DNA from: Minisyncoccota bacterium
GTDB lineage: Bacteria; Patescibacteriota; Minisyncoccia; Phycocordibacterales; WO2-35-19
NCBI GenBank assembly: GCA_041664625.1
Contig: JBAYKK010000004.1
Coordinates: 2,343-66,342, forward strand
DNA length: 64,000 bases
Reading direction: 5' to 3'
Shown here: positions 5,488-56,501 of the stretch, piece by piece
Layout of the letters: every line of letters starts with the position of its first letter
How positions within the stretch are numbered: the first letter of the stretch is position 1
Position numbers and translations under genes: made by a program
Notes under the pieces: model-generated
Database searches by the model: none
Seen by the model: the letters and a program-made list of their open reading frames with translations, nothing else
Told to the model about the DNA's origin: nothing

Positions 5488-5559
5488 GGCCTGGTAGCCA
5501 AGTAGTAAGGCATTCCTCTGCAAAAGGAATATACGCGGGTGCAATTCCCACCCAGGCCT
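5488..5559 (+). tRNA. tRNA-Cys (GCA)
   Basis: Acceptor GGCCTGG/CCAGGCC; anticodon stem TTCCT/AGGAA with loop CTGCAAA; T-arm GGGTG-CAATTCC-CACCC; no encoded CCA. Confidence 0.7.
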
Positions 5560-5633
5560 CCGCGAAATTTTAAGGAGCAAAGTGACTATAAAATTTCAGC
5601 GCCCCGCCGAAGCTTTAGCGAAGGCGGACAAAA

Positions 5634-5716
5634 GCTCGGGTGGTGGAATGGTATACACGAAGGACTTAAAATCCTTTGGCCGCAAGGCCTTGCGAGTTCG
5701 AGTCTCGCCCCGAGCA
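5634..5716 (+). tRNA. tRNA-Leu (TAA), type II with long variable arm
   Basis: Acceptor GCTCGGG/CCCGAGC; anticodon loop CTTAAAA; variable arm GGCCGCAAGGCC; T-arm GCGAG-TTCGAGT-CTCGC. Confidence 0.8.
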
Positions 5717-5719
5717 CCG

Positions 5720-6478
5720 ATGAAATGGCTTAATAAAAAAATATTATTTCTTTTGGGTTATGTGATTTTGGCAGGGATAGTAGTTTTAATATTTAAACCC
5801 ACTTACCTTTTATCTATCATTTTAGTTTTAGTACCGCCTAGTATCGCAAACTTCTATTGGCTCAAAAAATCAAAACTCAAAGTTTTTGTTTTTGCTTTTA
5901 TAACTGGCGTAGTCATCGCTCCAGCCATCGAACTCTGTGCCAGACTCGCCAACGTCTGGGATGTGCAGTCTGTGATCTTAAGACCTTTTGGACTCATACC
6001 GATAGAAAACATGCTTTTTGCTTTCTTAAATTTCTTGTGGGTTTTGAGTTTTTATGAATATTTTGTAGATCGCGATTACAACAAAAAAATATCATGCAAA
6101 TTTAAAATACTAGTGACTATCTACGTCGTGGCCGCTATCGCTATTTATGCTTTATTTTTTATAAATAAAGCATTGGTAACTTTAAACTACATCACCATTT
6201 CTATACCACTTTTGGTTTTACCGGCTATTTTGATTTTTAGCAAAAAACCAGCTCTACTCAAAAAAGTCATTTTGCCAACCATATTTTTTGCTTTGATTTT
6301 TTTCTATTACGAAATAATCTCCCTCATCATCGGCAGTTGGTGGTGGCCAGGTGAATATATTTTCAACACCACCATTTTTGGCAAAGTTTTCCCACTTGAT
6401 GATGTCATCATCTGGTACCTCCTATCTACCCCAGTCCTTATCGGCGGTTATGAATTTTTCACTGACGATTGGCATTAA
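5720..6478 (+). CDS. Polytopic membrane protein, possibly lycopene-cyclase-domain family
   Basis: 252 aa from ATG at 5720 (the longer six-frame ORF from 5582 overlaps tRNA-Leu); ~7 TM helices; 'IPIEN'/'FPLDD' motifs. Confidence 0.4.
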
Positions 6479-6566
6479 AATTATTTAAATTAACAATTGA
6501 ATTTGATAGTTATTAACCATATTACAGTTTGGTTCTATTTCTATATAGGATATAATTGGTAGTACA

Positions 6567-7286
6567 ATGATAATTAACTCAATCCTAAAACAAAAATCAA
6601 GGGCTCTCAGGAAAAAAGGTTTTAGTTATGGAGAAATAGCGTCCAAAATAAAAATTTCAAAAAGCACAGTAAAATATTGGTGTACTGATATAATTCTTAA
6701 TCAAAAAGACCAAAAAAGACTTTACACTAAACAAATAAAGGCACTTTCAGGTGGGCCAAGAAGTAGCCACAATCGAAGACAAAAAGAAATAGAAAAAATT
6801 ACTAAAAATTCCGAAAAGGAAATATCCTTACCCATCAATTTAGATACATACAAACTTTTTGGTGCTGCCCTTTACTGGGCAGAAGGAAATAAGATCAGTG
6901 ATTTTACAATTACTAATTCCGATCCATTATTAATACAATTTATGTGTCAATGGTTTTGTAAAATATTTAATGTCACACCTAATGATCTAAAAGCTCATCT
7001 TAATATATATCCACAACAAAACGATTTAGAAATAAAAAAATTTTGGTCAAATATAACAGGAATACCATTAAATAGATTTGGGAAAACTTTTATCAAACCA
7101 GTGAGTAAAAATTACAAAAAAAATAATCTTTATTATGGAACAATTAAAGTCAGGGTTAGCAAAGGTACAGATTTTAGACATCGTGTATTTAGTTGGATTA
7201 ATGCAATATTAAAAAATAATAAAATTAATGTTGGAATTACTGAAAGAAAATGGTATAAATTAAAGGGTGACTATATGCGCCCATAG
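6567..7286 (+). CDS. HTH-containing protein with LAGLIDADG-like motif (possible homing-endonuclease-like)
   Basis: 239 aa; N-terminal resolvase-type HTH 'GFSYGEIASKIKISKSTVKYW'; 'LFGAALYWAEGNK' resembles LAGLIDADG; stop overlaps tRNA-Lys 5' end. Confidence 0.3.
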   Translation: MIINSILKQKSRALRKKGFSYGEIASKIKISKSTVKYWCTDIILNQKDQKRLYTKQIKALSGGPRSSHNRRQKEIEKITKNSEKEISLPINLDTYKLFGAALYWAEGNKISDFTITNSDPLLIQFMCQWFCKIFNVTPNDLKAHLNIYPQQNDLEIKKFWSNITGIPLNRFGKTFIKPVSKNYKKNNLYYGTIKVRVSKGTDFRHRVFSWINAILKNNKINVGITERKWYKLKGDYMRP

Positions 7287-7349
7287 CTCAGTCGGTAGAG
7301 CAGTCGCCTCTTAAGCGAACGGTCCTTGGTTCGAATCCAAGTGGGCGCA
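7277..7349 (+). tRNA. tRNA-Lys (CTT)
   Basis: Acceptor GCGCCCA/TGGGCGC; D-arm GCTC..GAGC; anticodon loop CTCTTAA; T-arm CTTGG-TTCGAAT-CCAAG. Confidence 0.8.
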
Positions 7350-7452
7350 CAAACCGACAACAGGAAGGTTTGTGCGAGTCGGAGCACGACGGTGCGAGCC
7401 GGGGTCGCGGAATTTTTTAGCAAAAAATTATCTGTGACCACTCGTAAAGTAT

Positions 7453-7533
7453 GCCGGGGTGGTGAAATGGTATACACGCCAGTTTTAGGAACTGGTGCCG
7501 CAAGGCATGGAGGTTCAAGTCCTCTCCCCGGCA
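7453..7533 (+). tRNA. tRNA-Leu (TAG), type II
   Basis: Acceptor GCCGGGG/CCCCGGC; anticodon stem CCAGT/ACTGG loop TTTAGGA; variable arm TGCCGCAAGGCA; T-loop TTCAAGT. Confidence 0.8.
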
Positions 7534-7536
7534 CAA
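7515..7536 (+). repeat. attL-like: tRNA-Leu(TAG) 3' end, duplicated at 31241-31264
   Basis: 'tcaag-tcctctccccggcacaa' here vs 'tcaagattcctctccccggcacaa' at 31241-31264 (17-nt exact core + 5 nt). Confidence 0.55.
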
Positions 7537-43413: not shown

Positions 43414-46161
43414 CTAAGCTCTGTGTTTTTTTAAGACTTTTTTCAAATACTGACCGGTGTAAGATTTGGTATTATTGGCCACTTCTTCTGGAGTACCTTT
43501 GGCTACCAATTGCCCACCCCCAACACCTCCATCTGGCCCGATATCAAGCACATAATCACAAGACTTCACGATATCCATATTGTGTTCGATCACCAAAACC
43601 GTATTGCCTTTATTGACCAATTTTTGCAAAATTTCTATCAATTTTTTGACATCTTCATAATGCAGACCGATGGTTGGCTCATCCAAGAGATATATGGTTT
43701 TTTGCAAGTGTGGTCGGTAAAGTTCACTTGAAATTTTGACTCTTTGAGCCTCCCCACCAGAAAGCGTAGTGGCCGATTGACCCAATTCCAAATAACCCAA
43801 ACCCACTTCGTCCAAAGTTTTTAACCTGTCATATATAGCCGGGATATCTTCAAAAAATTTCAAAGCTTCCTCTACTGTCATTTTCAAAATATCGTAAATA
43901 TTTTTCTTTTTATATTTCACATCCAGAGTTTCTTTCATAAATCTTTTGCCGTGACAAACATCGCAAGGCACATAAACCGTCGGCAAAAAATGCATCTCCA
44001 CCTCTATCATGCCGTTCCCTTGGCAGACTTCGCATCGCCCACCTTTGACATTGAAGGAAAACCGATTGGCTTGCCAACCCCGAGCTCGCGCTTCGGCAGT
44101 TTCAGCAAACAAATCTCGCACAAATGTCCACGCCCCGGTATAAGTAGCCGGATTGGACCTCGGCGTACGCCCGATGGCTGACTGATCAATCAAAATAGCT
44201 CGGCCCAAATATTCGGTCCCAGCAAATGAACCACAATTGAAAGTTTCGGCTGTGCGATATTTCTTTTCAAAACGCGCTTGTAAGTTTTTGTACAAAATTT
44301 CATAAACAAAAGAAGATTTACCAGAACCAGAAACTCCGGTCACAGCTACGAATTTACCCAAGGGCACATCGACATTTAAATTTTTGATGTTGAAAACTTT
44401 ACCGCCTCTGATTTGCAAAGCGCCTTTTTCTTTTTCTCTTCTCTTTTCGGGTAATTCAACAATTTTATCACCTCGTAAATAATCCAAAGTGACCGAGTCC
44501 GAATCGTTCTTTTTGGCAGTCAGGAGTTCATTCAAATCTCCAGCGACCACCACTTCCCCGCCGTGCACTCCCGCTCCCGGACCGATATCAACTATATAAT
44601 CAGAAGCATAAATAGTATCTTCATCATGTTCTACCACTATTATAGTGTTGCCTAAATCGCGCAGATCAAGCAAAGTTTGGATCAAGCGATCATTGTCTCG
44701 CGCGTGCAGTCCTATGGTTGGCTCATCGAGTACATACAAAGCTCCCACCAAACCCGAACCAAGTTGAGATGCTAGACGGATGCGTTGAGCCTCCCCGCCT
44801 GAAAGTGTATGAGCTCTGCGATTGAGCGAGAGGTATTCAATACCGACGTTGATCATGAAAATCAGTCTTGATTCGATTTCTCGCAAAACCACTTTAGAAA
44901 TATTTTTTTCGCGCTCAGTCAATTTGAGTTTTTCAAAAAAATCATAAGAATCTTTGATAGACATCTCTACCAACTCTACGATATTTTTGCCTCCTATTTT
45001 CACATGCAGTGCCTCAGGCCTTAGTCTCGCACCCAAACAGACCGGACAAACCTCATTGCCGAAGAAGTGCCGAGTACCCAAACCATTACATTCTGGGCAA
45101 GCACCATATGGGGAGTTGAATGAAAAAAGACGGGGTTCAACTTCAGGATATGAATAACCGTCTTTGGGGCAAGAAAGTTTGTTGGACATTATGAAATTAT
45201 CCCCCGATTCTGAAACCAAAGATTCTGAAGCTGTATTTTTCGAAGAAAAATTAGCGGAGCCAGCGGAAGAATTTTTGGTTTTAGAATTCAATCCTTTAAA
45301 CATAATTTTCACTTGACCTTCAGATTCCGTCAGAGCCTTTTCCAGATCTTCAAAAAGTCGCTCTTCGGCACTTTTGGGATCATTCACAAAATCCGCCATA
45401 CTTATACTATCTACTAAAACATCAATAGTATGTCTTTTGGTTTTTGAAAGTATTATCTGTTCACGCAAAGATTTACGTACTCCATCTACCAAAACGTGCG
45501 AATAACCCTTACCCAACAAATCATAAAGCAGTTGGTAGTACTCGCCCTTTCTGCCTTTGACTACCGGCGCAAAAATTTCAACAAAAACTTGCTGTTCCGC
45601 TGTCGAAGTCGCCAGCTCTACCGCATTTCCCAATTTACTTTTTTTCTTTTTATTTATATCAGACACTGTCTTGGACATATTCTTTTTGAATTCTGTTTTA
45701 TGTACTGCCACTTTTTCCAAAACAAAATTTTTGATTTCTTCGTTTGAAAGTTTTTTGATTTCATCGCCACAGACCAAACAATATGGGTGGCCAACGCGAG
45801 CATACAAAATACGCAAATAATCATAAATTTCTGTGATGGTCGCCACCGTTGAACGTGGATTGTTGGAACGAGATTTTTGGTCAATAGAAATAGCCGGACT
45901 TAATCCTACAATCTCATCAACATCCGGTTTCTGAAGCTGGCGCAAAAATTGCCGAGCATAAGACGAAAGTGATTCTATATATCTGCGCTGGCCTTCGGCA
46001 AAAATAGTATCAAAAGCTAGCGATGATTTGCCAGAACCTGAAAGACCAGTGAAAACTACCATCTTGTTGCGTGGCATTTCTACGGTGATATTTTTGAGAT
46101 TATGAGTCCTCGCCCCTTTGACGATGATCTTATCTCCTTGTTTTTGTTCTTTTTTAATCAT
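43414..46161 (-). CDS. uvrA: Excinuclease ABC subunit A
   Basis: 915 aa; two ABC ATPase modules (Walker A 'GLSGSGKSS' and 'GVSGSGKSS', signatures 'LSGGEAQR'), zinc fingers. Confidence 0.95.
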
Positions 46162-46263: not shown

Positions 46264-48498
46264 CTACGCCAAAAGTTCCCAGGCGTTTTTGGGGTTTTTG
46301 TGTTTTTTGACTTTGGGCACAATATTTAGTTTTTCGAGTTCAAAAATTTCATCACGAAGCAGTGCCGCGGTTTCGAAGTCCAAAATTTTCACTGCCCCAT
46401 CCATCTGCTTTTCTTTTTGAGCGATAAGTTTTTTAAGTTTCTTTGGATCTTTAAGCAAAATGTTTTTATCTATTTTAATTAATTCATCCACAGCTTTGCC
46501 ATGTTCACTACGCAGTTGATCTGTAATATCTTGAATTTTTTTGATAATAGTTTTGGGTATGATTCCATGTTTAGTATTGTATGCGATCTGTATCGCCCTT
46601 CGACGATTGGTCTCACCTATCGCTCGCTCCATAGAACCTGTCATGGTGTCTGCATACAGGATAACTTTACCAAGTACATTGCGAGCGGCCCGACCGATAA
46701 TTTGGATGAGTGATGTGTCACTGCGCAAAAAACCTTCTTTGTCCGCATCCAAAATACCGATGAGCGTCACCTCTGGTAAATCCAAACCCTCTCGAAGCAA
46801 GTTCACTCCAACCAGACAATCAAACCCACCAAGCTTCGGGCCTTTGCGTAAGTTGGTCAAAATTTCGATTCGATCAATCGTCTTGATGTCACTGTGCAAA
46901 TACTCTGCCTTGATACCCTTTTCTTTCAAATACTCTGACAAATCTTCGGCCATTTTTTTGGTGAGTGTGGTGGCGATAACCCGGCCACCAGCTTTTATAT
47001 TTTTTTCCGCCTCGGCTATGAAATCGGCTATCTGACCAGGGTAGTTCTCTTCTTTTTTCATAACCCCCTCTTGCTTCGCCTTGCGGATGCTTGAAATCGC
47101 ATCCTCACCCCTTACCTTAAGGGGGGAATCAGAAAAACTAGACTCTATATTCTCGCGCCCCTCTCTTAATGTAAGAGAGGGGTTGGGGTGAGTTATTTTT
47201 TTTTCAGTAATCGGCCTGACTTCCACCACGGGATCAATAAGGCCGGTCGGACGGATCACTTGCTCTACCACCCGCTCACTGTGTTCACCTTCATAATGGC
47301 TAGGAGTAGCCGAAGTATAAATAACTTGACCGACTCGTTCTTCAAATTCTTTGAAAGTCAGCGGGCGATTGTCTTTGGCGCTAGGCAATCTAAAACCAAA
47401 ATCTACCAGCGATTGCTTACGCGAAGCATCTCCCGCATACATCGCACCAATCTGAGGAACAGAAACATGTGATTCATCTATTATAGTCAAAAAATCTGGT
47501 TCACCATTTTCTTTATGTGGAAAATATGAAAGTAGTGTGTCTGGCGCTTCACCGGCCTTTTTACCAGAAAAATGCCTAGAATAATTTTCGATGCCGTTGC
47601 AATAACCCATTTCGCGTATCAAAGCCAGGTCGTAAGTGGTGCGTCTTTTGAGTCTCTCGGCTTCCAAAAGTTTGCCAGCCTTTTCTAATTCTTTGAGTCT
47701 AGAAGCCAACTCAGCTTTGATGGTTTTGAAAGCTTTGGCGCTTTGCTCTTTGGTAGAAATGAAATGTTTGGCCGGAAAAAGGAAAAATACTGAAACTTCT
47801 TCAATGATAGCTCGCGTGATCGCTTCTATTTTTAAAATATTTTTTATTACCCCTTCATTGATCTCGATTCTGAAAATAATTTTTTCTGAAACCGGCATGA
47901 TTTCTATCATATTACCAATGACTCTGAATTGACCCGGATTCAAATCGGCGTTGGTGCGTTCAAAATGAATATCAATGAGCTTACGCAAAAAATCGCTTCG
48001 AGAAATTTTTTGGCCTTTTTCTACTTTCAAATTTACTTTTTCATATTCAACTGGAGACCCCAAACCATAAATACAAGAAACCGAGGCCACGATAATCACG
48101 TCTTTACGAGTGAGCAAAGCTTGAGTAGAAGCATGACGCAATCTTTCTATTTCTTCATTTATCATTGCCTCCTTTTCTATATATGTATCAGAGACCGGCA
48201 TATAGGCTTCCGGTTGATAGTAATCATAATATGAGACGAAATAATGCACCGCGTTTTCGGGGAAAAATTCACGATATTCTTGAGCTAGTTGAGCCGCCAA
48301 AGTTTTGTTATGAGCGATGACCAAAGTTGGTTTGTTTATTTTTTCAATAACATTGGCCACTGTGAAAGTTTTGCCACTACCTGTCACGCCCAAAAGAGTC
48401 TGATGCTTCAGACCTTGTTTGATACCGTCTACCAACTTATTTATGGCCTGCGGTTGATCCCCCGCCGGCTCAAAATCTTTTTTAATCTTAAAATTCAT
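46264..48498 (-). CDS. uvrB: Excinuclease ABC subunit B, with ~50-aa in-frame insertion derived from palindromic repeat elements
   Basis: Helicase motifs 'GVTGSGKT', 'DESH', UvrB beta-hairpin region; start at M29 (48498) because the longer ORF overlaps tRNA-Ser; insertion at 47107-47197. Confidence 0.9.
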   Translation of the reverse strand: MNFKIKKDFEPAGDQPQAINKLVDGIKQGLKHQTLLGVTGSGKTFTVANVIEKINKPTLVIAHNKTLAAQLAQEYREFFPENAVHYFVSYYDYYQPEAYMPVSDTYIEKEAMINEEIERLRHASTQALLTRKDVIIVASVSCIYGLGSPVEYEKVNLKVEKGQKISRSDFLRKLIDIHFERTNADLNPGQFRVIGNMIEIMPVSEKIIFRIEINEGVIKNILKIEAITRAIIEEVSVFFLFPAKHFISTKEQSAKAFKTIKAELASRLKELEKAGKLLEAERLKRRTTYDLALIREMGYCNGIENYSRHFSGKKAGEAPDTLLSYFPHKENGEPDFLTIIDESHVSVPQIGAMYAGDASRKQSLVDFGFRLPSAKDNRPLTFKEFEERVGQVIYTSATPSHYEGEHSERVVEQVIRPTGLIDPVVEVRPITEKKITHPNPSLTLREGRENIESSFSDSPLKVRGEDAISSIRKAKQEGVMKKEENYPGQIADFIAEAEKNIKAGGRVIATTLTKKMAEDLSEYLKEKGIKAEYLHSDIKTIDRIEILTNLRKGPKLGGFDCLVGVNLLREGLDLPEVTLIGILDADKEGFLRSDTSLIQIIGRAARNVLGKVILYADTMTGSMERAIGETNRRRAIQIAYNTKHGIIPKTIIKKIQDITDQLRSEHGKAVDELIKIDKNILLKDPKKLKKLIAQKEKQMDGAVKILDFETAALLRDEIFELEKLNIVPKVKKHKNPKNAWELLA
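47158..47197 (+). repeat. Palindromic repeat element (copy 2, inverted relative to 5049-5088) inside uvrB coding sequence
   Basis: cccctctcttaatgtaagagaggggttggggtgagttatt = reverse complement of 5049-5088 (one T indel). Confidence 0.7.
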
Positions 48499-48501
48499 AT
48501 G

Positions 48502-48588
48502 CGGAAGTGGGAGGATTCGAACCCCCGATCCGCTTTCACGGATGCCGGTTTTCGAAACCGGTGCCTTCAACCACTCAGCCACACTTCC
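48502..48588 (-). tRNA. tRNA-Ser (CGA), type II
   Basis: Acceptor GGAAGTG/CACTTCC; anticodon stem CCGGT/ACCGG loop TTCGAAA; long variable arm; T-loop TTCGAAT. Confidence 0.8.
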
Positions 48589-48705: not shown

Positions 48706-48777
48706 GGCCCCATCGTCTAACGGTTAGGACACTGCCTTTTCAAGGCAGGAATCAGAGTTCGATTCTCTGTGGGGTCA
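48706..48777 (+). tRNA. tRNA-Glu (TTC)
   Basis: Acceptor GGCCCCA/TGGGGTC; anticodon stem CTGCC/GGCAG loop TTTTCAA; T-arm CAGAG-TTCGATT-CTCTG. Confidence 0.8.
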
Positions 48778-48895
48778 CATTCAAGGCCGACGCGGAGACA
48801 TCGTTGTTTTGCAACGTATTTCGTCGACCAACATCAAAATCTAAGCCGACCCGAAGTGTCAGTTTTGCATCATTGATTTTTTATTTTAAGATTAT

Positions 48896-50317: not shown

Positions 50318-51478
50318 ATGGCAAACAAAAATCTTACGAATGCAAAACGGGCAAAAAATGACGAGTTTTATACTCAGTATAGTGATATTCAAAAAGAGAT
50401 TGGAGCGTATTTGGAATACAACCCAGTTGTATTTCGAGATAAGGTGGTATATTGCAATTGTGATGATCCGTTCGAGAGTAATTTTTTTCGCTACTTTGTT
50501 CTCAATTTCAATAAGCTTAACTTGAAACAACTTATCACTACCAGTTATAAACCATCACCGATTGCTAATACAGAACTTGTATTGCAACCATCCCTTCTTC
50601 CTGATTATAAAGATATGGTTGTGAAAAAACTAACAGTACCAAAGGGTAGACCGAAGGTAACTGCTAACAAATTTATTATCAACGAAGTGCGCGACATAGA
50701 CGGCAACGGTGAGTTCAACTTGAAAGACGTTGCTAAGCAGTTAAAAGCAAACAAACATAATGAATGGGCACCTCTTGAAGGTGACGGTGATTTTCGTAGT
50801 GATGAATCTATAAATTTATTAAAACAATCCGACATCGTAGTGACTAATCCACCGTTCAGTTTGTTTCGCGAATATATAAAACAGCTTGTTGAACACAACA
50901 AAAAGTTTTTAATTATCGGTAATATGAATGCTATCACCTATAAAGAAGTGTTCCCATTGCTCAAAGATAATAAAGTTTGGTTGGGCAACAATTACAAAGT
51001 TAATGCTGGTGCCATGTTTTTTGAAATTCCAGAGGCAATTGCTAACTTGGAGCAAGTTCGTGAAATTAAAACAAATGAAAGTGGCAAGAAAGTTTATATT
51101 ACCAGAGTTCAAGGGGTTCGCTGGTTCACCAACCTTGATCATGGTCGCCGTCATCAGCCATTACCTCTTATGACCGAAGCAGAAGTTATAAAATTTGTAA
51201 CAAAAAAACCTTTTGAAAAATATGACAATTATAATGCGATAGATGTATCTCTAGTTAAAAATATTCCGAGTGATTATAGTGGTGTAATGGGAGTGCCGAT
51301 GAGTGTATTTGATAAACATTCCCCTGAACAGTTCGAGATTTTAGGAAGTGATTATAATGTTAAAGAAGGATTGCTTCCAAAATTAGTTAATCCAAAATGG
51401 AAAGGCAAGTTAGATAGAGGATATGTAAATGGCAAAAGATTTTATACTCGAATATTTATTAAACATAATAAGGAATAA
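50318..51478 (+). CDS. N6-adenine DNA methyltransferase, EcoRI-methylase-like family
   Basis: 386 aa; N-terminal '[10 protein letters not shown]...[16 protein letters not shown]' and catalytic 'NPPFS' (motif IV). Confidence 0.55.
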
Positions 51479-51479
51479 C

Positions 51480-52646
51480 ATGAAGACAGTTTTAAAAACT
51501 AATATAACTATTCAAGAAATTTGCAACGGATTTGTCTATAACGAACTTGAGGGTAAGGGTTTGTTTGGTCTCTCGGGCAAACTCACGATTCAGCCAGAAT
51601 ATCAGCGCAACTATATCTATTCATCCGATGGCGGCAAAAGAGAAATCGCTGTAATTGAATCAGTCCTAAAAGGCTATCCAATAGGTTTGATTTATTTCAA
51701 TAAGATTTCCGATGATAGTTTAGAGGTTTTGGACGGACAGCAACGCATCACAAGTCTCGGACGATTTATTACCGATAAATTTGCTATCAAAGATGAAAAC
51801 GGGATGCAATATTTTGGCACAATGGCAAAAGATAAGAAAGATAAAATTTTGGAAACAAAACTTCTTATTTATGAATGTGAAGGGACAGAAAGCCAAATAA
51901 AAGAGTGGTTTAAGACTATAAATATTGCCGGGGTTCCGCTTGTTCCTCAAGAATTACTAAACGCGATCTATTCCGGACCATTTGTTACATTGAGCAAAGA
52001 GGAGTTTAGCAACAGCCAAAATGCCAATATTCAAAAATGGGGTGCCTACATAAAAGGAAGCGCAAACAGACAAGCGTTTTTTGAGAGAGCGTTAGATTGG
52101 GTGAGTAAAGGAAATATTGATGATTATATGAGCAGTCATCGCAATGATAAAAATATTAATGAGTTAAAAAAATATTTTAATAATGTGATTGATTGGGTTT
52201 CTAGTGTATTCACTGATGTAGAAGATGAAATGTGTGGGCTTGAATGGGGACGATTTTATGAGCAGTATAACAAGAAATCCTATGACCCTAAGAAGGTCTC
52301 AGCTGAAATGCGTAAACTCTATGGCGATCCATACATCAAAAACCGCAAAGGTATTTTTGAATTTATTTTAGGTGGTTCTATTGATACGAAATTACTTGAA
52401 GTTCGTGTTTTTGATGATGCAATTAAAAAATCGGTTTATGCAACACAAACCGCTAAAGCAGAAAAAAGTGGTATATCAAATTGTTCTTATTGCGCCATTG
52501 GACATGACGTAAATAAAGCGAAAATTTGGAGTTTGAGCGATATGGACGCCGACCATGTTTCAGCTTGGAGTAAGGGCGGGGCTACTTCAGCGAAGAATTG
52601 TGAGATGTTGTGTAAAACCCACAATCGGGCAAAAGGTAATCGATAA
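51480..52646 (+). CDS. DUF262 (ParB-like, GmrS-type) domain fused to C-terminal HNH nuclease
   Basis: 388 aa; '[10 protein letters not shown]', 'DGQQRITSL' DUF262 signatures; C-terminal 'CSYC...[12 protein letters not shown]...[15 protein letters not shown]' HNH; start immediately after MTase stop with AAGGA RBS. Confidence 0.7.
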
Positions 52647-52679
52647 GAAGCCATACTAATCGGAAAAATAAATATTAAA

Positions 52680-53399
52680 ATGACTACCACCGAAGAATTA
52701 CAAAAACAAATAAATGAGCTTCTGAGTCAAATTAATTCTTTACAAAAACAATTCGGATTTCCTGTATCTTCTGGCTTGGGAATAGATACAGAAAAAGAAT
52801 TATTAGAGAAAAAAGCTGAATTTTTATCTAATGAGTTGGAAAAAATAGGCGAAATTCTTTCTAATCTTACTGCTGGAACAGGGATTTTGTTAACCATTGC
52901 AGGCATATTATCCTTCCTTCCCCAATTTATGATAAATAATGGAGAATACCTTGCAAACTTTTTGTTTTGGACGTTCTGGCTTCTTCCTTTATCCATTATC
53001 ACTTACTACCCGTCTTCTCTAAGAATTTCTTCGATAATTAAAGGCCAGCCCTTTGCTTCTACTGGTTCTAGTATGGAATTGGAAATTTTAAAAAATAGAG
53101 CTCAATATCTTGAATTAATATGGAAGAGATCTGTAGAAAATCATGATTCGGTAATATTCTGGAACAGACTAACTAAAAGTTTTATATATACATATATTGT
53201 ATCTCTAGTTTTGAATTTTTATGTTTTTGTTTTTTATGGAAAACCGAGTTTGTTGGTTTCAATAGTATTACTCTTCATATCCTGCTTAACAGCAACAATG
53301 CTACTTGTTTCTCAAAAAGCTAAATCTGAAAAGAATAGGGTCATCGGCGATACAAAAATCGATATAAACGCTGTTGGTGGCGCACCATCAGATACATAA
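52680..53399 (+). CDS. Membrane protein with N-terminal coiled coil
   Basis: 239 aa; coiled-coil ~aa 5-60, then 4 TM helices. Confidence 0.35.
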   Translation: MTTTEELQKQINELLSQINSLQKQFGFPVSSGLGIDTEKELLEKKAEFLSNELEKIGEILSNLTAGTGILLTIAGILSFLPQFMINNGEYLANFLFWTFWLLPLSIITYYPSSLRISSIIKGQPFASTGSSMELEILKNRAQYLELIWKRSVENHDSVIFWNRLTKSFIYTYIVSLVLNFYVFVFYGKPSLLVSIVLLFISCLTATMLLVSQKAKSEKNRVIGDTKIDINAVGGAPSDT

Positions 53400-53453
53400 C
53401 ATGCCCAAAAGATATCAGAAAATAATATATGAATTTAATAAAAAATATATAAG

Positions 53454-54143
53454 ATGAGCTACTATCGTAAACCATATTATCATCATCGTTATTACAAAAA
53501 CAAAAGCAAAGGGCCTGATTTGTTTGATATGTTAGCTGATATTATTTTTTTCCTCGGCGTAATTTTTGGAAAGTTTATCTTTTGGATTTTTAAAAAGATT
53601 TTTAGCAATAAAAATAAAACCAAAGGGTTATTCAAATTAAATGCAGAGCCAACAGAAAATTCAGAGGAGGACGTACAAATTCAAGAGAAACTTAATAAAT
53701 TCGTTCAATCTCCTTATGCCAAAAATGAACAAGAATCACCAAAAGAAAATGCTAGAAAATACTCTTTAAAAGAAAGTCAGATCACAGAAGCGGAAAAATG
53801 TTTTTTTGAAATTTTAAAAGAAGTGGTCGGCAATAATTATAGGATTGAACCCCAAGTTCAACTGTCCAGTATAGTGAGGCCAATAGATTCTAATAATAGA
53901 TATACTAATTATACAGACTTCAATAGGATAAAGGCTAAGTCTATTGATTTTGTTTTGTTTGATGATAAAAATAAGCCTTGGTTGGCAATTGAGCTTGATG
54001 ACCGCTCTCATTTTAAATGGGAGAGGATGAGGCGAGACCAATTTGTTAATGATTTGATGACTGAGGTTGGTTTGCGTATTATTCATGTACCGTTCTCATA
54101 TTCATATGATAGTGAAAAATTAAGAAAACAAATTTTTGTTTAA
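53454..54143 (+). CDS. Membrane-anchored DUF2726 (restriction-endonuclease-like fold) protein
   Basis: 229 aa; N-terminal TM; C-terminal 'SIDFVLFDDKNKPWLAIELDDRSH...RMRRDQFVNDLMTEVGLRIIHV' typical DUF2726. Confidence 0.5.
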   Translation: MSYYRKPYYHHRYYKNKSKGPDLFDMLADIIFFLGVIFGKFIFWIFKKIFSNKNKTKGLFKLNAEPTENSEEDVQIQEKLNKFVQSPYAKNEQESPKENARKYSLKESQITEAEKCFFEILKEVVGNNYRIEPQVQLSSIVRPIDSNNRYTNYTDFNRIKAKSIDFVLFDDKNKPWLAIELDDRSHFKWERMRRDQFVNDLMTEVGLRIIHVPFSYSYDSEKLRKQIFV

Positions 54144-54153
54144 TAAAAAAGTT

Positions 54154-54954
54154 ATGTTCATACCAAAAAAAATTCTTTATGCTATCGGCGGGGTCGTGAT
54201 ATTAATTGTCGTTTTCTTAATTGGAGTCTCGTCTGGAAATAAAAGTGAAAATTTAATATCAGAGCAAACTGCAGCAGTGGTAAAGTCAGATACAGTTAAC
54301 ACCAATATTGCTCCCAAATCGGGCGAGTTGGTCAAAGTGGTCAGAGTAGTAGATGGCGACACCATTAATGTTGAAATAAACGGTAAAATTGAGCCAGTGC
54401 GTTATATCGGCATTGATACTCCGGAAACAGTTGATCCGAGGAAGCCAGTGCAATGCTTTGGGGTGGAAGCATCAAAGAAAAATAAAGAATTAGTAGAAGG
54501 TAAAATGGTGAGATTAGAAACTGATATCACTGATCGCGATAAATACAATCGACTACTTCGTTATATTTGGCTTGATGACACTCTTATAAATCAGGTGTTG
54601 GTTGAACAAGGATATGCCAAATCATACTCATACCCTCCAGATGTTAAGTACCAAGATAAATTTGTGGCAGCCGAAAAACAAGCTAGAGAAAATAAATTGG
54701 GTCTTTGGACAGCTTGTACTTCAGAAACAACCACAACAACAGTTCCATCAACAACACAAACATCTTCATCTGCTTCCGATCCTTCCTGCACCATTAAAGG
54801 TAATATAAGCTCTTCGGGAGAAAAAATTTACCACATGCAAGGATGTGGTTCGTATGCAAAGACTGTCATTGACGAAAGTCGTGGAGAAAAATGGTTCTGT
54901 ACCGAAGCCGAGGCTCAATCTGCCGGTTGGAGAAAAGCTTTAAATTGTAATTAA
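54154..54954 (+). CDS. Secreted/membrane-anchored thermonuclease (SNase-like), paralog of 13779-14579
   Basis: Same motifs as copy 1; ~88% nt identity, mostly synonymous differences. Confidence 0.8.
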   Translation: MFIPKKILYAIGGVVILIVVFLIGVSSGNKSENLISEQTAAVVKSDTVNTNIAPKSGELVKVVRVVDGDTINVEINGKIEPVRYIGIDTPETVDPRKPVQCFGVEASKKNKELVEGKMVRLETDITDRDKYNRLLRYIWLDDTLINQVLVEQGYAKSYSYPPDVKYQDKFVAAEKQARENKLGLWTACTSETTTTTVPSTTQTSSSASDPSCTIKGNISSSGEKIYHMQGCGSYAKTVIDESRGEKWFCTEAEAQSAGWRKALNCN

Positions 54955-54962
54955 AATATAAA

Positions 54963-55952
54963 ATGGAACGAGAAAACAACAAAAACAAAGAACGTCTCTG
55001 GGCTACGATTGCTGGTATCGTCATTGCCGTATTGGCTGCGTTTTCGTATTTAATATTTTTCCAATCATCTGAATCGCAAGCGGAATCAGAGAGATTTGTG
55101 ATGCCTCTAAAATCGGATCAAACTGCTTCCGGTTTACTCAAATCCCAAGAATTTATAAAAAATAATTTTGGTTTTTGGATAGCAAGTTTACTGAGAGGTC
55201 TGGGAGGTGTTGAACCTGGCGGTTATAAAATTTCAAAATCAATGACCGCTTGGCAAATCGCCGAAGTTTTGAAGCAAGAGCCATATATGAAATGGGTAGT
55301 AATTCCCGAAGGATTGAGAAAAGAAGAAATTGCCGATTTGCTTACCACCACTCTCGGTTGGTCAGAAAAAGAAAAGAGCGATTGGATAAATACGTACACT
55401 GCTATGGATTTTGATCATACAGAGGGTGTATATTTCCCTGATACATATCTCATTCCTGTGGACGAAGATCCGCTTGATGTTGCAAAAAGACTACGAGCCA
55501 AGTTTGAAGAAAAATTTGCACCATACGCCAAAGAGGCCGTAGCCCAAAACATCAAATGGACCACGCTTCTCAAAATCGCTTCCATTATTCAAAGAGAAGC
55601 TAACGGACACGAAGACATGCCTTTAGTTGCAGGTATTCTTTGGAATAGATTGCTTAAAGATATGAGATTGGAGGTAGATGCAACTTTGCAATATGCCAGG
55701 GGTGATAAGGGAGATGGTTGGTGGGCATCCATTACAACGGCTGAAAAGCAAATTGAATCACCTTACAATACTTACAAAAATACAGGTCTGCCTCTACACC
55801 CGATCTCCAACCCTGGACTTTCGGCCATTGAAGCCGCTCTACATCCGGCTTCTACTACTTGCCTATATTACCTCCATGACAACTCTGGAGAAATTCATTG
55901 CTCTGATAGTTATGAAGGACATGAGACTAATATTGATAAATACTTAAAATAA
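54963..55952 (+). CDS. mltG: MltG/YceG-like murein transglycosylase, paralog of 14588-15577
   Basis: 329 aa, same length and motifs as copy 1. Confidence 0.7.
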   Translation: MERENNKNKERLWATIAGIVIAVLAAFSYLIFFQSSESQAESERFVMPLKSDQTASGLLKSQEFIKNNFGFWIASLLRGLGGVEPGGYKISKSMTAWQIAEVLKQEPYMKWVVIPEGLRKEEIADLLTTTLGWSEKEKSDWINTYTAMDFDHTEGVYFPDTYLIPVDEDPLDVAKRLRAKFEEKFAPYAKEAVAQNIKWTTLLKIASIIQREANGHEDMPLVAGILWNRLLKDMRLEVDATLQYARGDKGDGWWASITTAEKQIESPYNTYKNTGLPLHPISNPGLSAIEAALHPASTTCLYYLHDNSGEIHCSDSYEGHETNIDKYLK

Positions 55953-55955
55953 AAA

Positions 55956-56501
55956 ATGATAACGGAAGAATTTAAAATAGGGTTTTGGCACCCATTTGGT
56001 CCACATGGAGGAGAAACACCGGAAGAAATTATAAAAAGGAAACAAAATGAAATAGATAAAAATGGTTGGACATTATGGTCATTTCAGTCAAGAAATACAT
56101 TAAAAAAATGGTTTGAAAAAATTGAAGAGATGAAACCAGATAAAGTGTTTGTTTTTTGTTCCGAAGGAAAAGGTTCTAAAGAGCCTGTAGGTGAAATAAA
56201 AAATTGTAGTTTGTATACTCCAATAAATGGACTCAAGTCAAAAGAAATTCCTCATGAAATTAAGATTCCTCATCCTATGGGTAAAAAATTAAAAGGTTCT
56301 GCTTTTATTGTAAAAAATATAATATATCCAGCAAGTTATGAGGATTCAATTTATGCGGAATGGTTAAAGGATGACAAATGGCAAGCAACAAAAGTTCCAA
56401 CGAGACCGGAATATTTAATAAAATCAGGGTCTGGCAATAAAATTAGAAAATTCCGTGCGGTTTTAGAATTAAAATATCCATATCTTGCAGAGATTTCATA
56501 A
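55956..56501 (+). CDS. Hypothetical protein
   Basis: 181 aa, Lys/Glu-rich, no family recognised. Confidence 0.3.
   Translation: MITEEFKIGFWHPFGPHGGETPEEIIKRKQNEIDKNGWTLWSFQSRNTLKKWFEKIEEMKPDKVFVFCSEGKGSKEPVGEIKNCSLYTPINGLKSKEIPHEIKIPHPMGKKLKGSAFIVKNIIYPASYEDSIYAEWLKDDKWQATKVPTRPEYLIKSGSGNKIRKFRAVLELKYPYLAEIS

Follow-up and report, generated by a model that had tools for sequence, protein, structure and literature searches.

An EcoRI-family methyltransferase beside a DUF262–HNH nuclease in a Minisyncoccota bacterium: a probable restriction–modification pair with swappable methyltransferase cassettes

What is a DNA methyltransferase (MTase) of the EcoRI family doing immediately upstream of a nuclease that recalls modification-dependent enzymes? 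The question is posed by a 64,000-nucleotide (nt) stretch of the genome of a Minisyncoccota bacterium (contig JBAYKK010000004.1, assembly GCA_041664625.1; hereafter the window), in which four genes follow one another between positions 50,318 and 54,143: an EcoRI-family N6-adenine MTase, a DUF262–HNH nuclease, a membrane protein and a membrane-anchored DUF2726 protein. An earlier note, written from the letters of the window only, had taken these for a four-gene defence cluster. We find that the first two very probably form a functional restriction–modification (R-M) pair, the window locus being a single instance of a catalogued pair that occurs in thousands of nearly identical copies, and that the last two are lineage-specific passengers, not conserved partners of the R-M module. 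The main peculiarity, not visible from the window sequence alone, is a set of swappable cassettes in the MTase set against a constant nuclease. This comparative pattern suggests that the family may be a mechanistic R-M variant undescribed in the literature searched.

The gene structure read off by the earlier note holds: four open reading frames (ORFs) on the plus strand, an NPPF motif, a 1-nt stop–start junction and an AAGGA ribosome-binding site are all in place, and the ORFs are strong family matches rather than chance reading frames. Its call of an EcoRI-methylase-like m6A MTase was borne out by comparison with profile hidden Markov models, with Pfam EcoRI_methylase (PF13651) matching at E = 5e-122 (407.9 bits, against a gathering cutoff of 26.4) and the PADLOC model MTase_II matching over the full length (2e-104). 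M.EcoRI of the E. coli EcoRI plasmid is 41.7% identical to the window MTase over 99% of its length, and NPPF is invariant in the alignment of MTase relatives. The MTase gave no match to the Pfam Type III methylase family PF12564, and none in a PDB sequence search.

The MTase stop codon (TAA, 51476–51478) is separated by one base from the nuclease ATG at 51480; an alternative, longer nuclease ORF runs from 51429, but the PADLOC profile and all homologues start at the 51480 Met. The nuclease joins GmrSD_N (DUF262, E = 5e-20) to an HNH domain (PF01844, E = 1e-6) and matches the PADLOC restriction endonuclease model REase_II (PDLC03418, 3e-81) over its full length. Pfam detected no DUF1524 (GmrD-type) domain, PF01844 being the only nuclease domain found, and neither MTase nor nuclease matches Pfam ResIII or PF12564. 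The earlier note had allowed for an inactive nuclease lacking the catalytic His/Asn; these residues are intact, as are all the motifs (QR 42–43, DGQQR 85–89, CxxC 335–338, D358-H359, N373, C374/C378 and H381-N382). Across 84 nuclease relatives of 31–61% identity, Q42, R43, D85, G86 and R89 of the DUF262 domain and C335 and H359 of the HNH domain are invariant, with Q87, Q88, C338, D358, N373 and C378 at least 90% conserved.

An AlphaFold2 model of the nuclease (predicted local distance difference test score, pLDDT, 94.5) places a helical middle region between DUF262 and the zinc-finger HNH. A fold search with this model found no close solved relative; the best solved analogues, all weak matches, are BrxU (E = 0.01, template-modelling (TM) score 0.23), CDP/CTP-bound ParB proteins and the Gme HNH nickase. 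Searching the PDB by sequence returned only TIM matches, which we judged spurious. Homologues go by the RefSeq name ‘DUF262 domain-containing protein’ only, without a curated restriction endonuclease name, and NCBIfam has no model for them.

The two genes travel together. Scanning one genome per species, we found a close nuclease relative in 424 genomes and analysed the best 80 of these loci (nuclease 81–90% identical, almost all Patescibacteria). In 72 of the 80 the nuclease is preceded, on its own strand, by an EcoRI-family MTase; in six of the remaining eight the contig extends less than 1 kb upstream, and two loci (L017 and L046) are truly MTase-less, with intact nuclease genes. The tight coupling that the earlier note read from the junction is thus matched by co-conservation of the pair. 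MTase and nuclease are at most 48 nt apart in 26 loci, with 5–8-nt junctions in 18, and none of the genes that follow the nuclease is conserved across the 80. One orphan deserves description in its own right: in a Saganbacteria genome (L017, 3405–5623), RhuM and an intact nuclease (85% identical) sit without an MTase in the futalosine (menaquinone) operon, tolerated by the host. The interval between MTase and nuclease is itself an insertion hot spot (loci L007–L077; for example, L020 5929–6999, L038 5388–5996, L074 5817–7016 and L077 5450–6145), and the cargo found there includes RhuM (15 loci), T5orf172/GIY-YIG-like (6), Fic (3) and HEPN-AbiU2 (3) genes on the same strand as the R-M genes.

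Beyond these loci, pairs in the same MTase-then-nuclease order occur on small and large plasmids of Moraxella, Enterococcus faecium, Pediococcus, Apilactobacillus, Arthrobacter, Rhodococcus, Gordonia, Ligilactobacillus, Macrococcoides, Variovorax and Sulfitobacter, with nuclease identity down to 35%. Flavobacterium phage vB_FspS_laban6-1 carries the pair as a two-gene insert beside its tape-measure gene, opposite in orientation to its neighbours (L083, 3781–6143; nuclease 76% identical). Among 1.8 billion cluster representatives searched with the nuclease, 431 clusters matched at E ≤ 1e-30, most of them 365–420 amino acids (aa) long. Over 8000 protein clusters were retrieved, and sequence clusters of the family number in the thousands among candidate-phyla-radiation bacteria. 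In one case (P0221/L123, 4001–6067) an EcoRI-methylase-like domain and a DUF262–HNH nuclease are fused in frame into a 688-aa protein; its organism reads TGA as Trp (GC content 0.33), the flanking gene is lipoprotein-like and no separate MTase is visible near the fusion. Co-inheritance, mobile carriage and the PADLOC matches together mark the first two genes as a genuine R-M pair that is mobile and has been catalogued before.

Comparing the partners in 63 complete pairs extracted from the related loci reveals a marked asymmetry. The nuclease averages 83.1% pairwise identity at 386–391 aa, keeps a mean column conservation (frequency of the most common residue) of at least 0.72 in every 20-residue window and contains no indel-rich or hypervariable segment. 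The MTase averages 68.7% at 360–413 aa, the nuclease being the more conserved partner in 96% of pairwise comparisons. Three segments of the MTase are variable, an indel-prone stretch (aa 81–110) and two cassettes that follow NPPF (aa 224–264 and aa 344–376); outside them, 20-residue windows hold a mean conservation of 0.71–0.95. Cassettes 1 and 2 fall into 9 and 23 mutually unalignable types, respectively, which combine almost freely (40 combinations among the 63). Nucleases can be 96.1% (L051/L060) or 94.1% (L056/L072) identical although the MTases beside them share neither cassette type, and mean nuclease identity is 86.4% for systems with the same cassette combination against 83.1% where both cassettes differ. 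Against a label-permutation null, covariation with cassette type is absent from every column of the nuclease alignment but present in columns of the MTase scaffold.

Plasmid and phage copies, with nucleases no more than 60–76% identical, carry these same cassette types, so the cassettes constitute a shared pool. M.EcoRI, encoded beside R.EcoRI on its E. coli plasmid, aligns along the whole MTase scaffold with a type 1 cassette 1 and a cassette 2 resembling type 11; the window MTase carries types 3 and 2, and its cassette 2 resembles that of an MTase on a Campylobacter coli plasmid, where the partner ORF is unrelated. No silent cassettes or second copies of a shufflon-like kind were found in the window or the related loci. 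About ten residues after cassette 1 lies a conserved HGRRH (RH) motif, whose His aligns with H235 of M.EcoRI. Mutation of His235 alters DNA intercalation and discrimination/specificity in M.EcoRI (PMC2396439), and this residue, next to cassette 1, is the sole experimental anchor for treating the cassettes as DNA-recognition elements.

How could one nuclease serve so many MTases? A free-standing Type IIP nuclease must read the sequence of its MTase, and an MTase that altered its specificity while the nuclease kept its own would kill the host; the nuclease subunit of a Type I or III system lacks a recognition module and depends on the methylase complex. A constant nuclease beside a cassette-shuffling MTase is the pattern of Type I and III systems, and we therefore propose that the nuclease of this pair is guided by its MTase. 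Such a system would work by Type III-like logic assembled from non-Type-III parts, with the EcoRI-family MTase setting specificity and the GmrSD-like NTPase–HNH protein as effector; we give this proposal an even chance. The cassettes of the MTase would determine where it marks host DNA. The nuclease, with no sequence specificity of its own, would be steered to sites lacking methylation, either by the MTase itself or by the methylation status that the MTase produces; the ParB-like DUF262 domain would act as a nucleoside triphosphate (NTP)-dependent switch, and the HNH domain would cut or nick unmarked DNA on recruitment by the MTase. That the nuclease borrows its specificity from the MTase seems to us, from the comparative data, close to evenly balanced, if anything a shade under. 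The orphan nucleases of L017 and L046 and the P0221/L123 fusion fit an MTase-guided model. More hesitantly still, and at something short of even, we suggest that the pair may be a distinct, so far uncharacterised R-M type: a monomeric MTase with two independently exchangeable recognition cassettes and a ParB-fold, NTP-gated HNH nuclease that lacks a recognition module and is recruited where methylation is missing, the specificity being reprogrammable through cassette exchange and nothing else. A search of the full-text literature (REBASE not covered) found no paper on the pairing of an EcoRI-family MTase with a DUF262–HNH protein, on its methylation motif or on its cleavage.

Several observations pull the other way. 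That the cassettes determine the methylated sequence is something we infer for every member of the family, and the MTase AlphaFold model, built from a shallow alignment, has a mean pLDDT of only 54.8 (below 50 in the C-terminal half), so the cassettes cannot be placed relative to the DNA cleft. At 35–44% identity the greater conservation of the nuclease over the MTase has disappeared, and nuclease subfamilies may therefore differ in their properties. About half the loci (36) have 0.6–3.5 kb of cargo between the two genes, which means that tight translational coupling is not universal. The fusion has degenerate MTase motifs (TFPSF instead of TNPPF) and its MTase domain is probably inactive; the domain may have been kept for recognition only, but this is a single case and could be a decaying gene. 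PADLOC, finally, classes the nuclease as an ordinary Type II restriction endonuclease.

Two other accounts of the pair compete with MTase guidance. In a classical Type IIP/IIS system the HNH nuclease would itself read the sequence of its MTase, as in EcoRI, and the MTase would only protect the host. Full-length REase_II and MTase_II matches in adjacent genes with a 1-nt spacer, the 41.7% identity to M.EcoRI, and an adjacency and small-plasmid carriage that are typical of Type II addiction modules all speak for this account. We nevertheless consider it unlikely, because 40 cassette combinations are served by a nuclease without a variable segment, nucleases 96% identical accompany MTases that differ in both cassettes, no nuclease residue follows cassette type, and intact orphan nucleases exist; nor do homologues bear a curated restriction endonuclease name. 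Palindrome avoidance in host DNA is likewise weak. Counting every palindrome of 4 or 6 bp against Markov expectation, both in the window and across ~0.8 Mb of host loci, we saw mild depletion and no assignable site, with observed/expected ratios of 0.63 for ACGT, 0.68–0.74 for TCGA and 0.65–0.75 for GAATTC (0.65 in the window), values that are weak and non-diagnostic.

The other account follows the earlier note, which had likened the DUF262–HNH protein to GmrSD-type modification-dependent enzymes. The protein would then be a Type IV enzyme directed against foreign modified DNA, with the MTase an independent or orphan neighbour. The likeness stands as far as domain and motif go: DUF262 and DGQQR are present, the N-terminal domain matches GmrSD_N, BrxU is the best solved structural match, and two loci have the nuclease without an MTase. 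Modification dependence fits worse, since the nuclease almost never occurs without an MTase, whose adjacency is kept from 90% to 35% identity across phyla, plasmids and phage. The close junctions (1 nt here, 5–8 nt in 18 loci), the natural MTase–nuclease fusion, a C-terminal PF01844 HNH rather than DUF1524 and the weakness of the BrxU match tell against it too, and we regard the Type IV account as quite improbable, more so than Type II. The earlier note's other suggestion, an unusual R-M arrangement, is the better fit, and MTase guidance is the form of it that we favour.

Do the membrane protein and the DUF2726 protein belong to the system? Their description in the earlier note was accurate. 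The third protein, described there as coiled-coil with four transmembrane segments, has a charged helical N-terminus of ~55 aa and three strong and one weaker hydrophobic segments, and the fourth is tethered by a single N-terminal hydrophobic segment. The membrane protein has no family match in Pfam, PADLOC, NCBIfam or PHROGs, and its homologues number only 27, each of them from a candidate-phyla-radiation bacterium or an unnamed metagenomic sequence. The DUF2726 protein matches its Pfam family at E = 6e-27 and carries a nuclease-like motif (IDFVLFD...IELDD). PADLOC, which the earlier note had named as a check, calls the first two genes as MTase_II and REase_II and has no match for the membrane protein; no defence model in PADLOC-DB v2 matches the DUF2726 protein either. 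Both genes are low in GC (0.32 and 0.31, against 0.39 for the window). In one relative (L095) the order nuclease, membrane protein, DUF2726, SNase is as in the window at ~80% identity. In L096/L097 the DUF2726 gene (57% identical) again follows the membrane protein, behind a different upstream gene. Membrane-protein homologues of 53–62% identity neighbour an 817-aa unassigned protein, a Schlafen/AlbA_2 protein or FtsX, none of them DUF2726, and a metagenome scan with the DUF2726 protein found no close relatives.

A single integrated four-gene system could be argued from the shared strand, the short spacers (1, 33 and 54 nt), the lack of a terminator found between the genes and the common order in L095. 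The co-occurrence data leave it very improbable: the membrane protein and DUF2726 are present in 0 of the 80 R-M loci and in no plasmid or phage region whose annotation was read, and nothing is conserved downstream of the nuclease. The four-gene cluster of the earlier note is therefore not upheld by the co-occurrence check that it had itself suggested. Its second proposal, that the latter two genes form an abortive-infection module of their own in the same island, remains a guess and to our mind a rather unlikely one. The two genes sit side by side in three related lineages, namely those of the window, of L095 and of L096/L097, with a different gene upstream in the last; both are low in GC, and DUF2726 retains a PD-(D/E)xK-like D...ELD motif. 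Yet adjacency is confined to close relatives, the more distant membrane-protein homologues keep other company, neither protein matches PADLOC and the metagenome scan yielded no close DUF2726 relatives. An envelope or nucleic-acid-scavenging role fits equally well, because DUF2726, the adjacent SNase and MltG are all anchored and tightly stacked; the membrane protein, DUF2726 and SNase may be envelope-associated. The SNase gene (54154–54954) encodes a staphylococcal-nuclease homologue with a C-terminal ‘sunset’ domain (NCBIfam NF051437), also matches the PADLOC candidate C3a212 and lies 8–10 nt from both DUF2726 and mltG, on one strand with them, all three products being N-terminally anchored.

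All four genes have a GC content of 0.31–0.37, against 0.39–0.42 for uvrAB, SNase and MltG, and may therefore all be foreign cargo. The earlier note had placed the block in the cargo slot of an element, and it is plausible that this block is the cargo of a serine-recombinase element: a recombinase at a tRNA gene and low GC agree with this, although no attachment (att) sites or empty site were found. The recombinase contains Resolvase (7e-22), Recombinase (1e-13) and Zn_ribbon_recom (1e-6) domains of Pfam in one protein, with an NCBIfam CcrB-like match below cutoff. Recombinase homologues lie directly upstream of the R-M pair in L045, L047 (53% identity), L051 and L060, and the order tRNA, serine recombinase, MTase, nuclease recurs in L047, L051 and L060 beside different tRNA genes, a layout that supports the recombinase as the vehicle of the pair. 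A search for flanking repeats gave no credible att pair, and neither did looking downstream, in five loci, for copies of the tRNA 3′ end. We rejected a 15-nt perfect inverted repeat (48876/55943) as the island border; it consists of A and T only, and the core gene mltG would fall inside the interval. The 21 loci of MltG relatives (52–79% identity) revealed no empty site, because gene order is not conserved in them. A promoter and terminator scan gave counts no higher than shuffled controls and no terminator between the four genes, and is thus uninformative on operon structure. The coordinates of the locus are collected in Table 1.

Table 1. Features of the window around the MTase–nuclease pair (positions in the window)
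Feature	Position	Strand	Remarks
uvrA	43414-46161	-	
uvrB	46264-48582	-	ORF as mechanically called
tRNA-Ser	48501-48588	-	
tRNA-Glu(UUC)	48706..48778	+	ARAGORN; adjoins recombinase end of putative island
Large serine recombinase, 433 aa	48896..50197	-	Divergent from MTase; probable mobilising gene of island
EcoRI-family N6-adenine DNA MTase, 386 aa	50318..51478	+	Modification subunit, probable specificity subunit; Pfam PF13651, PADLOC MTase_II
MTase catalytic motif IV NPPF (aa 177-180)	50846..50857	+	
MTase variable cassette 1 (aa 224-264), putative target-recognition element	50987..51109	+	Window is type 3 of 9
MTase variable cassette 2 (aa 344-376)	51347..51445	+	Window is type 2 of 23
AAGGA ribosome-binding site of nuclease, within 3′ end of MTase gene	51470..51474	+	
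DUF262 (ParB/GmrS-like NTPase fold) + HNH nuclease, 388 aa, restriction subunit	51480..52646	+	
DGQQR nucleotide-binding motif of nuclease DUF262 domain (aa 85-89)	51732..51746	+	
Zinc-finger HNH motif of nuclease (CSYC ... DADH ... N373 ... C374/C378 ... THN)	52482..52640	+	
Membrane protein: helical N-terminus + 3-4 transmembrane segments, 239 aa	52680..53399	+	
DUF2726 protein, N-terminally membrane-anchored, 229 aa	53454..54143	+	PD-(D/E)xK-like motif IDFVLFD...IELDD
Membrane-anchored SNase with ‘sunset’ domain	54154-54954	+	
MltG/YceG	54963-55952	+	

The surroundings offer some observations of their own. The called uvrB ORF begins within tRNA-Ser, and its true start is probably a Met 28 codons downstream (MNFKIKK...); the encoded UvrB has what we take to be an insertion of ~60 residues (ITHPNPSLTLREGRENIESS...) relative to a typical UvrB. 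Beyond mltG, at a distance of 3 nt, lies a 181-aa ORF (55956–56501) without a family match and with a very low third-position GC of 0.19, tightly coupled to a downstream DKNYY-repeat protein; an 81% identical copy follows MltG in L103. Further off in the window, four tRNA genes (Cys, Leu, Lys and Leu; 5488–7534) surround a low-GC stretch (0.31 at 6001–7000), which may be the other ‘element’ alluded to in the earlier note. A Giovannonibacteria locus (L053, 8286–11694) has the R-M pair followed by an OLD-family ATPase–TOPRIM nuclease and then by a DUF2130 protein, the whole lying 4.5 kb upstream of mltG/yceG, and suggests a defence island at a position similar to that in the window.

Much turns on which account of the pair is right. 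If MTase guidance holds, the family would represent a new mechanistic class of restriction enzyme in which a ParB-like nucleotide switch replaces the helicase motor; it would explain how specificity can diversify without killing the host, and it would offer a compact scaffold of two proteins, in which exchange of short cassettes could change the specificity of the cut. Were the pair an ordinary Type II system, the locus would be routine and the outcome a correct R-M call plus two unrelated genes. With close relatives in so many species-level genomes (424), the pair is among the commonest modules of candidate-phyla-radiation bacteria, which are reported to be largely without CRISPR and to depend on R-M.

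Set beside known systems, the pair resembles several and coincides with none of them. With EcoRI R-M (Type IIP) it shares a PF13651 MTase whose scaffold bears the NPPF and RH motifs, and some relatives carry the cassette 1 type of M.EcoRI. The nuclease, however, is unrelated to R.EcoRI (DUF262 plus HNH rather than PD-(D/E)xK), MTase precedes nuclease here whereas the order is reversed on the EcoRI plasmid, and in this family one nuclease serves many MTase cassette combinations. GmrSD, BrxU and SspE have in common with the window nuclease an N-terminal DUF262 with QR and DGQQR and a C-terminal His-Me-type nuclease, BrxU being its best solved match. Those proteins are larger (~560–770 aa, with DUF1524) than the 388-aa window nuclease with its zinc-finger PF01844 HNH, and they are modification-dependent (Type IV) or phosphorothioate-sensing, whereas the window nuclease is paired with an adenine MTase. 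SspE, too, needs a mark that its partner genes place on host DNA (PMC9646914). GmrSD-family Type IV enzymes act alone on modified DNA and have no cognate MTase, whereas here an MTase accompanies the nuclease in 72 of 80 loci, on the plasmids and in the phage.

The parallels with Type I lie in cargo and in modularity. RhuM, Fic, T5orf172 and HEPN-AbiU2 genes occupy the MTase–nuclease interval of related loci, and such accessory genes are known inside Type I hsd operons. The two independently swappable cassettes recall the two target-recognition domains of HsdS, but there is no HsdS or HsdR here and the putative recognition cassettes lie within the MTase polypeptide. Type III systems such as EcoP15I Mod/Res carry a swappable target-recognition region in the MTase and have a conserved NTP-binding nuclease partner that lacks a recognition module and would be harmless as an orphan subunit. 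Homology is absent: the window partner has a ParB/DUF262 fold and HNH in place of an SF2 helicase-like ATPase and PD-(D/E)xK, and M.EcoRI-like enzymes are of the gamma type by motif order, whereas Type III Mod is a beta-type dimer. What the pair has in common with Type III is the logic, a variable, putatively target-recognizing region in the MTase joined to a conserved nuclease partner.

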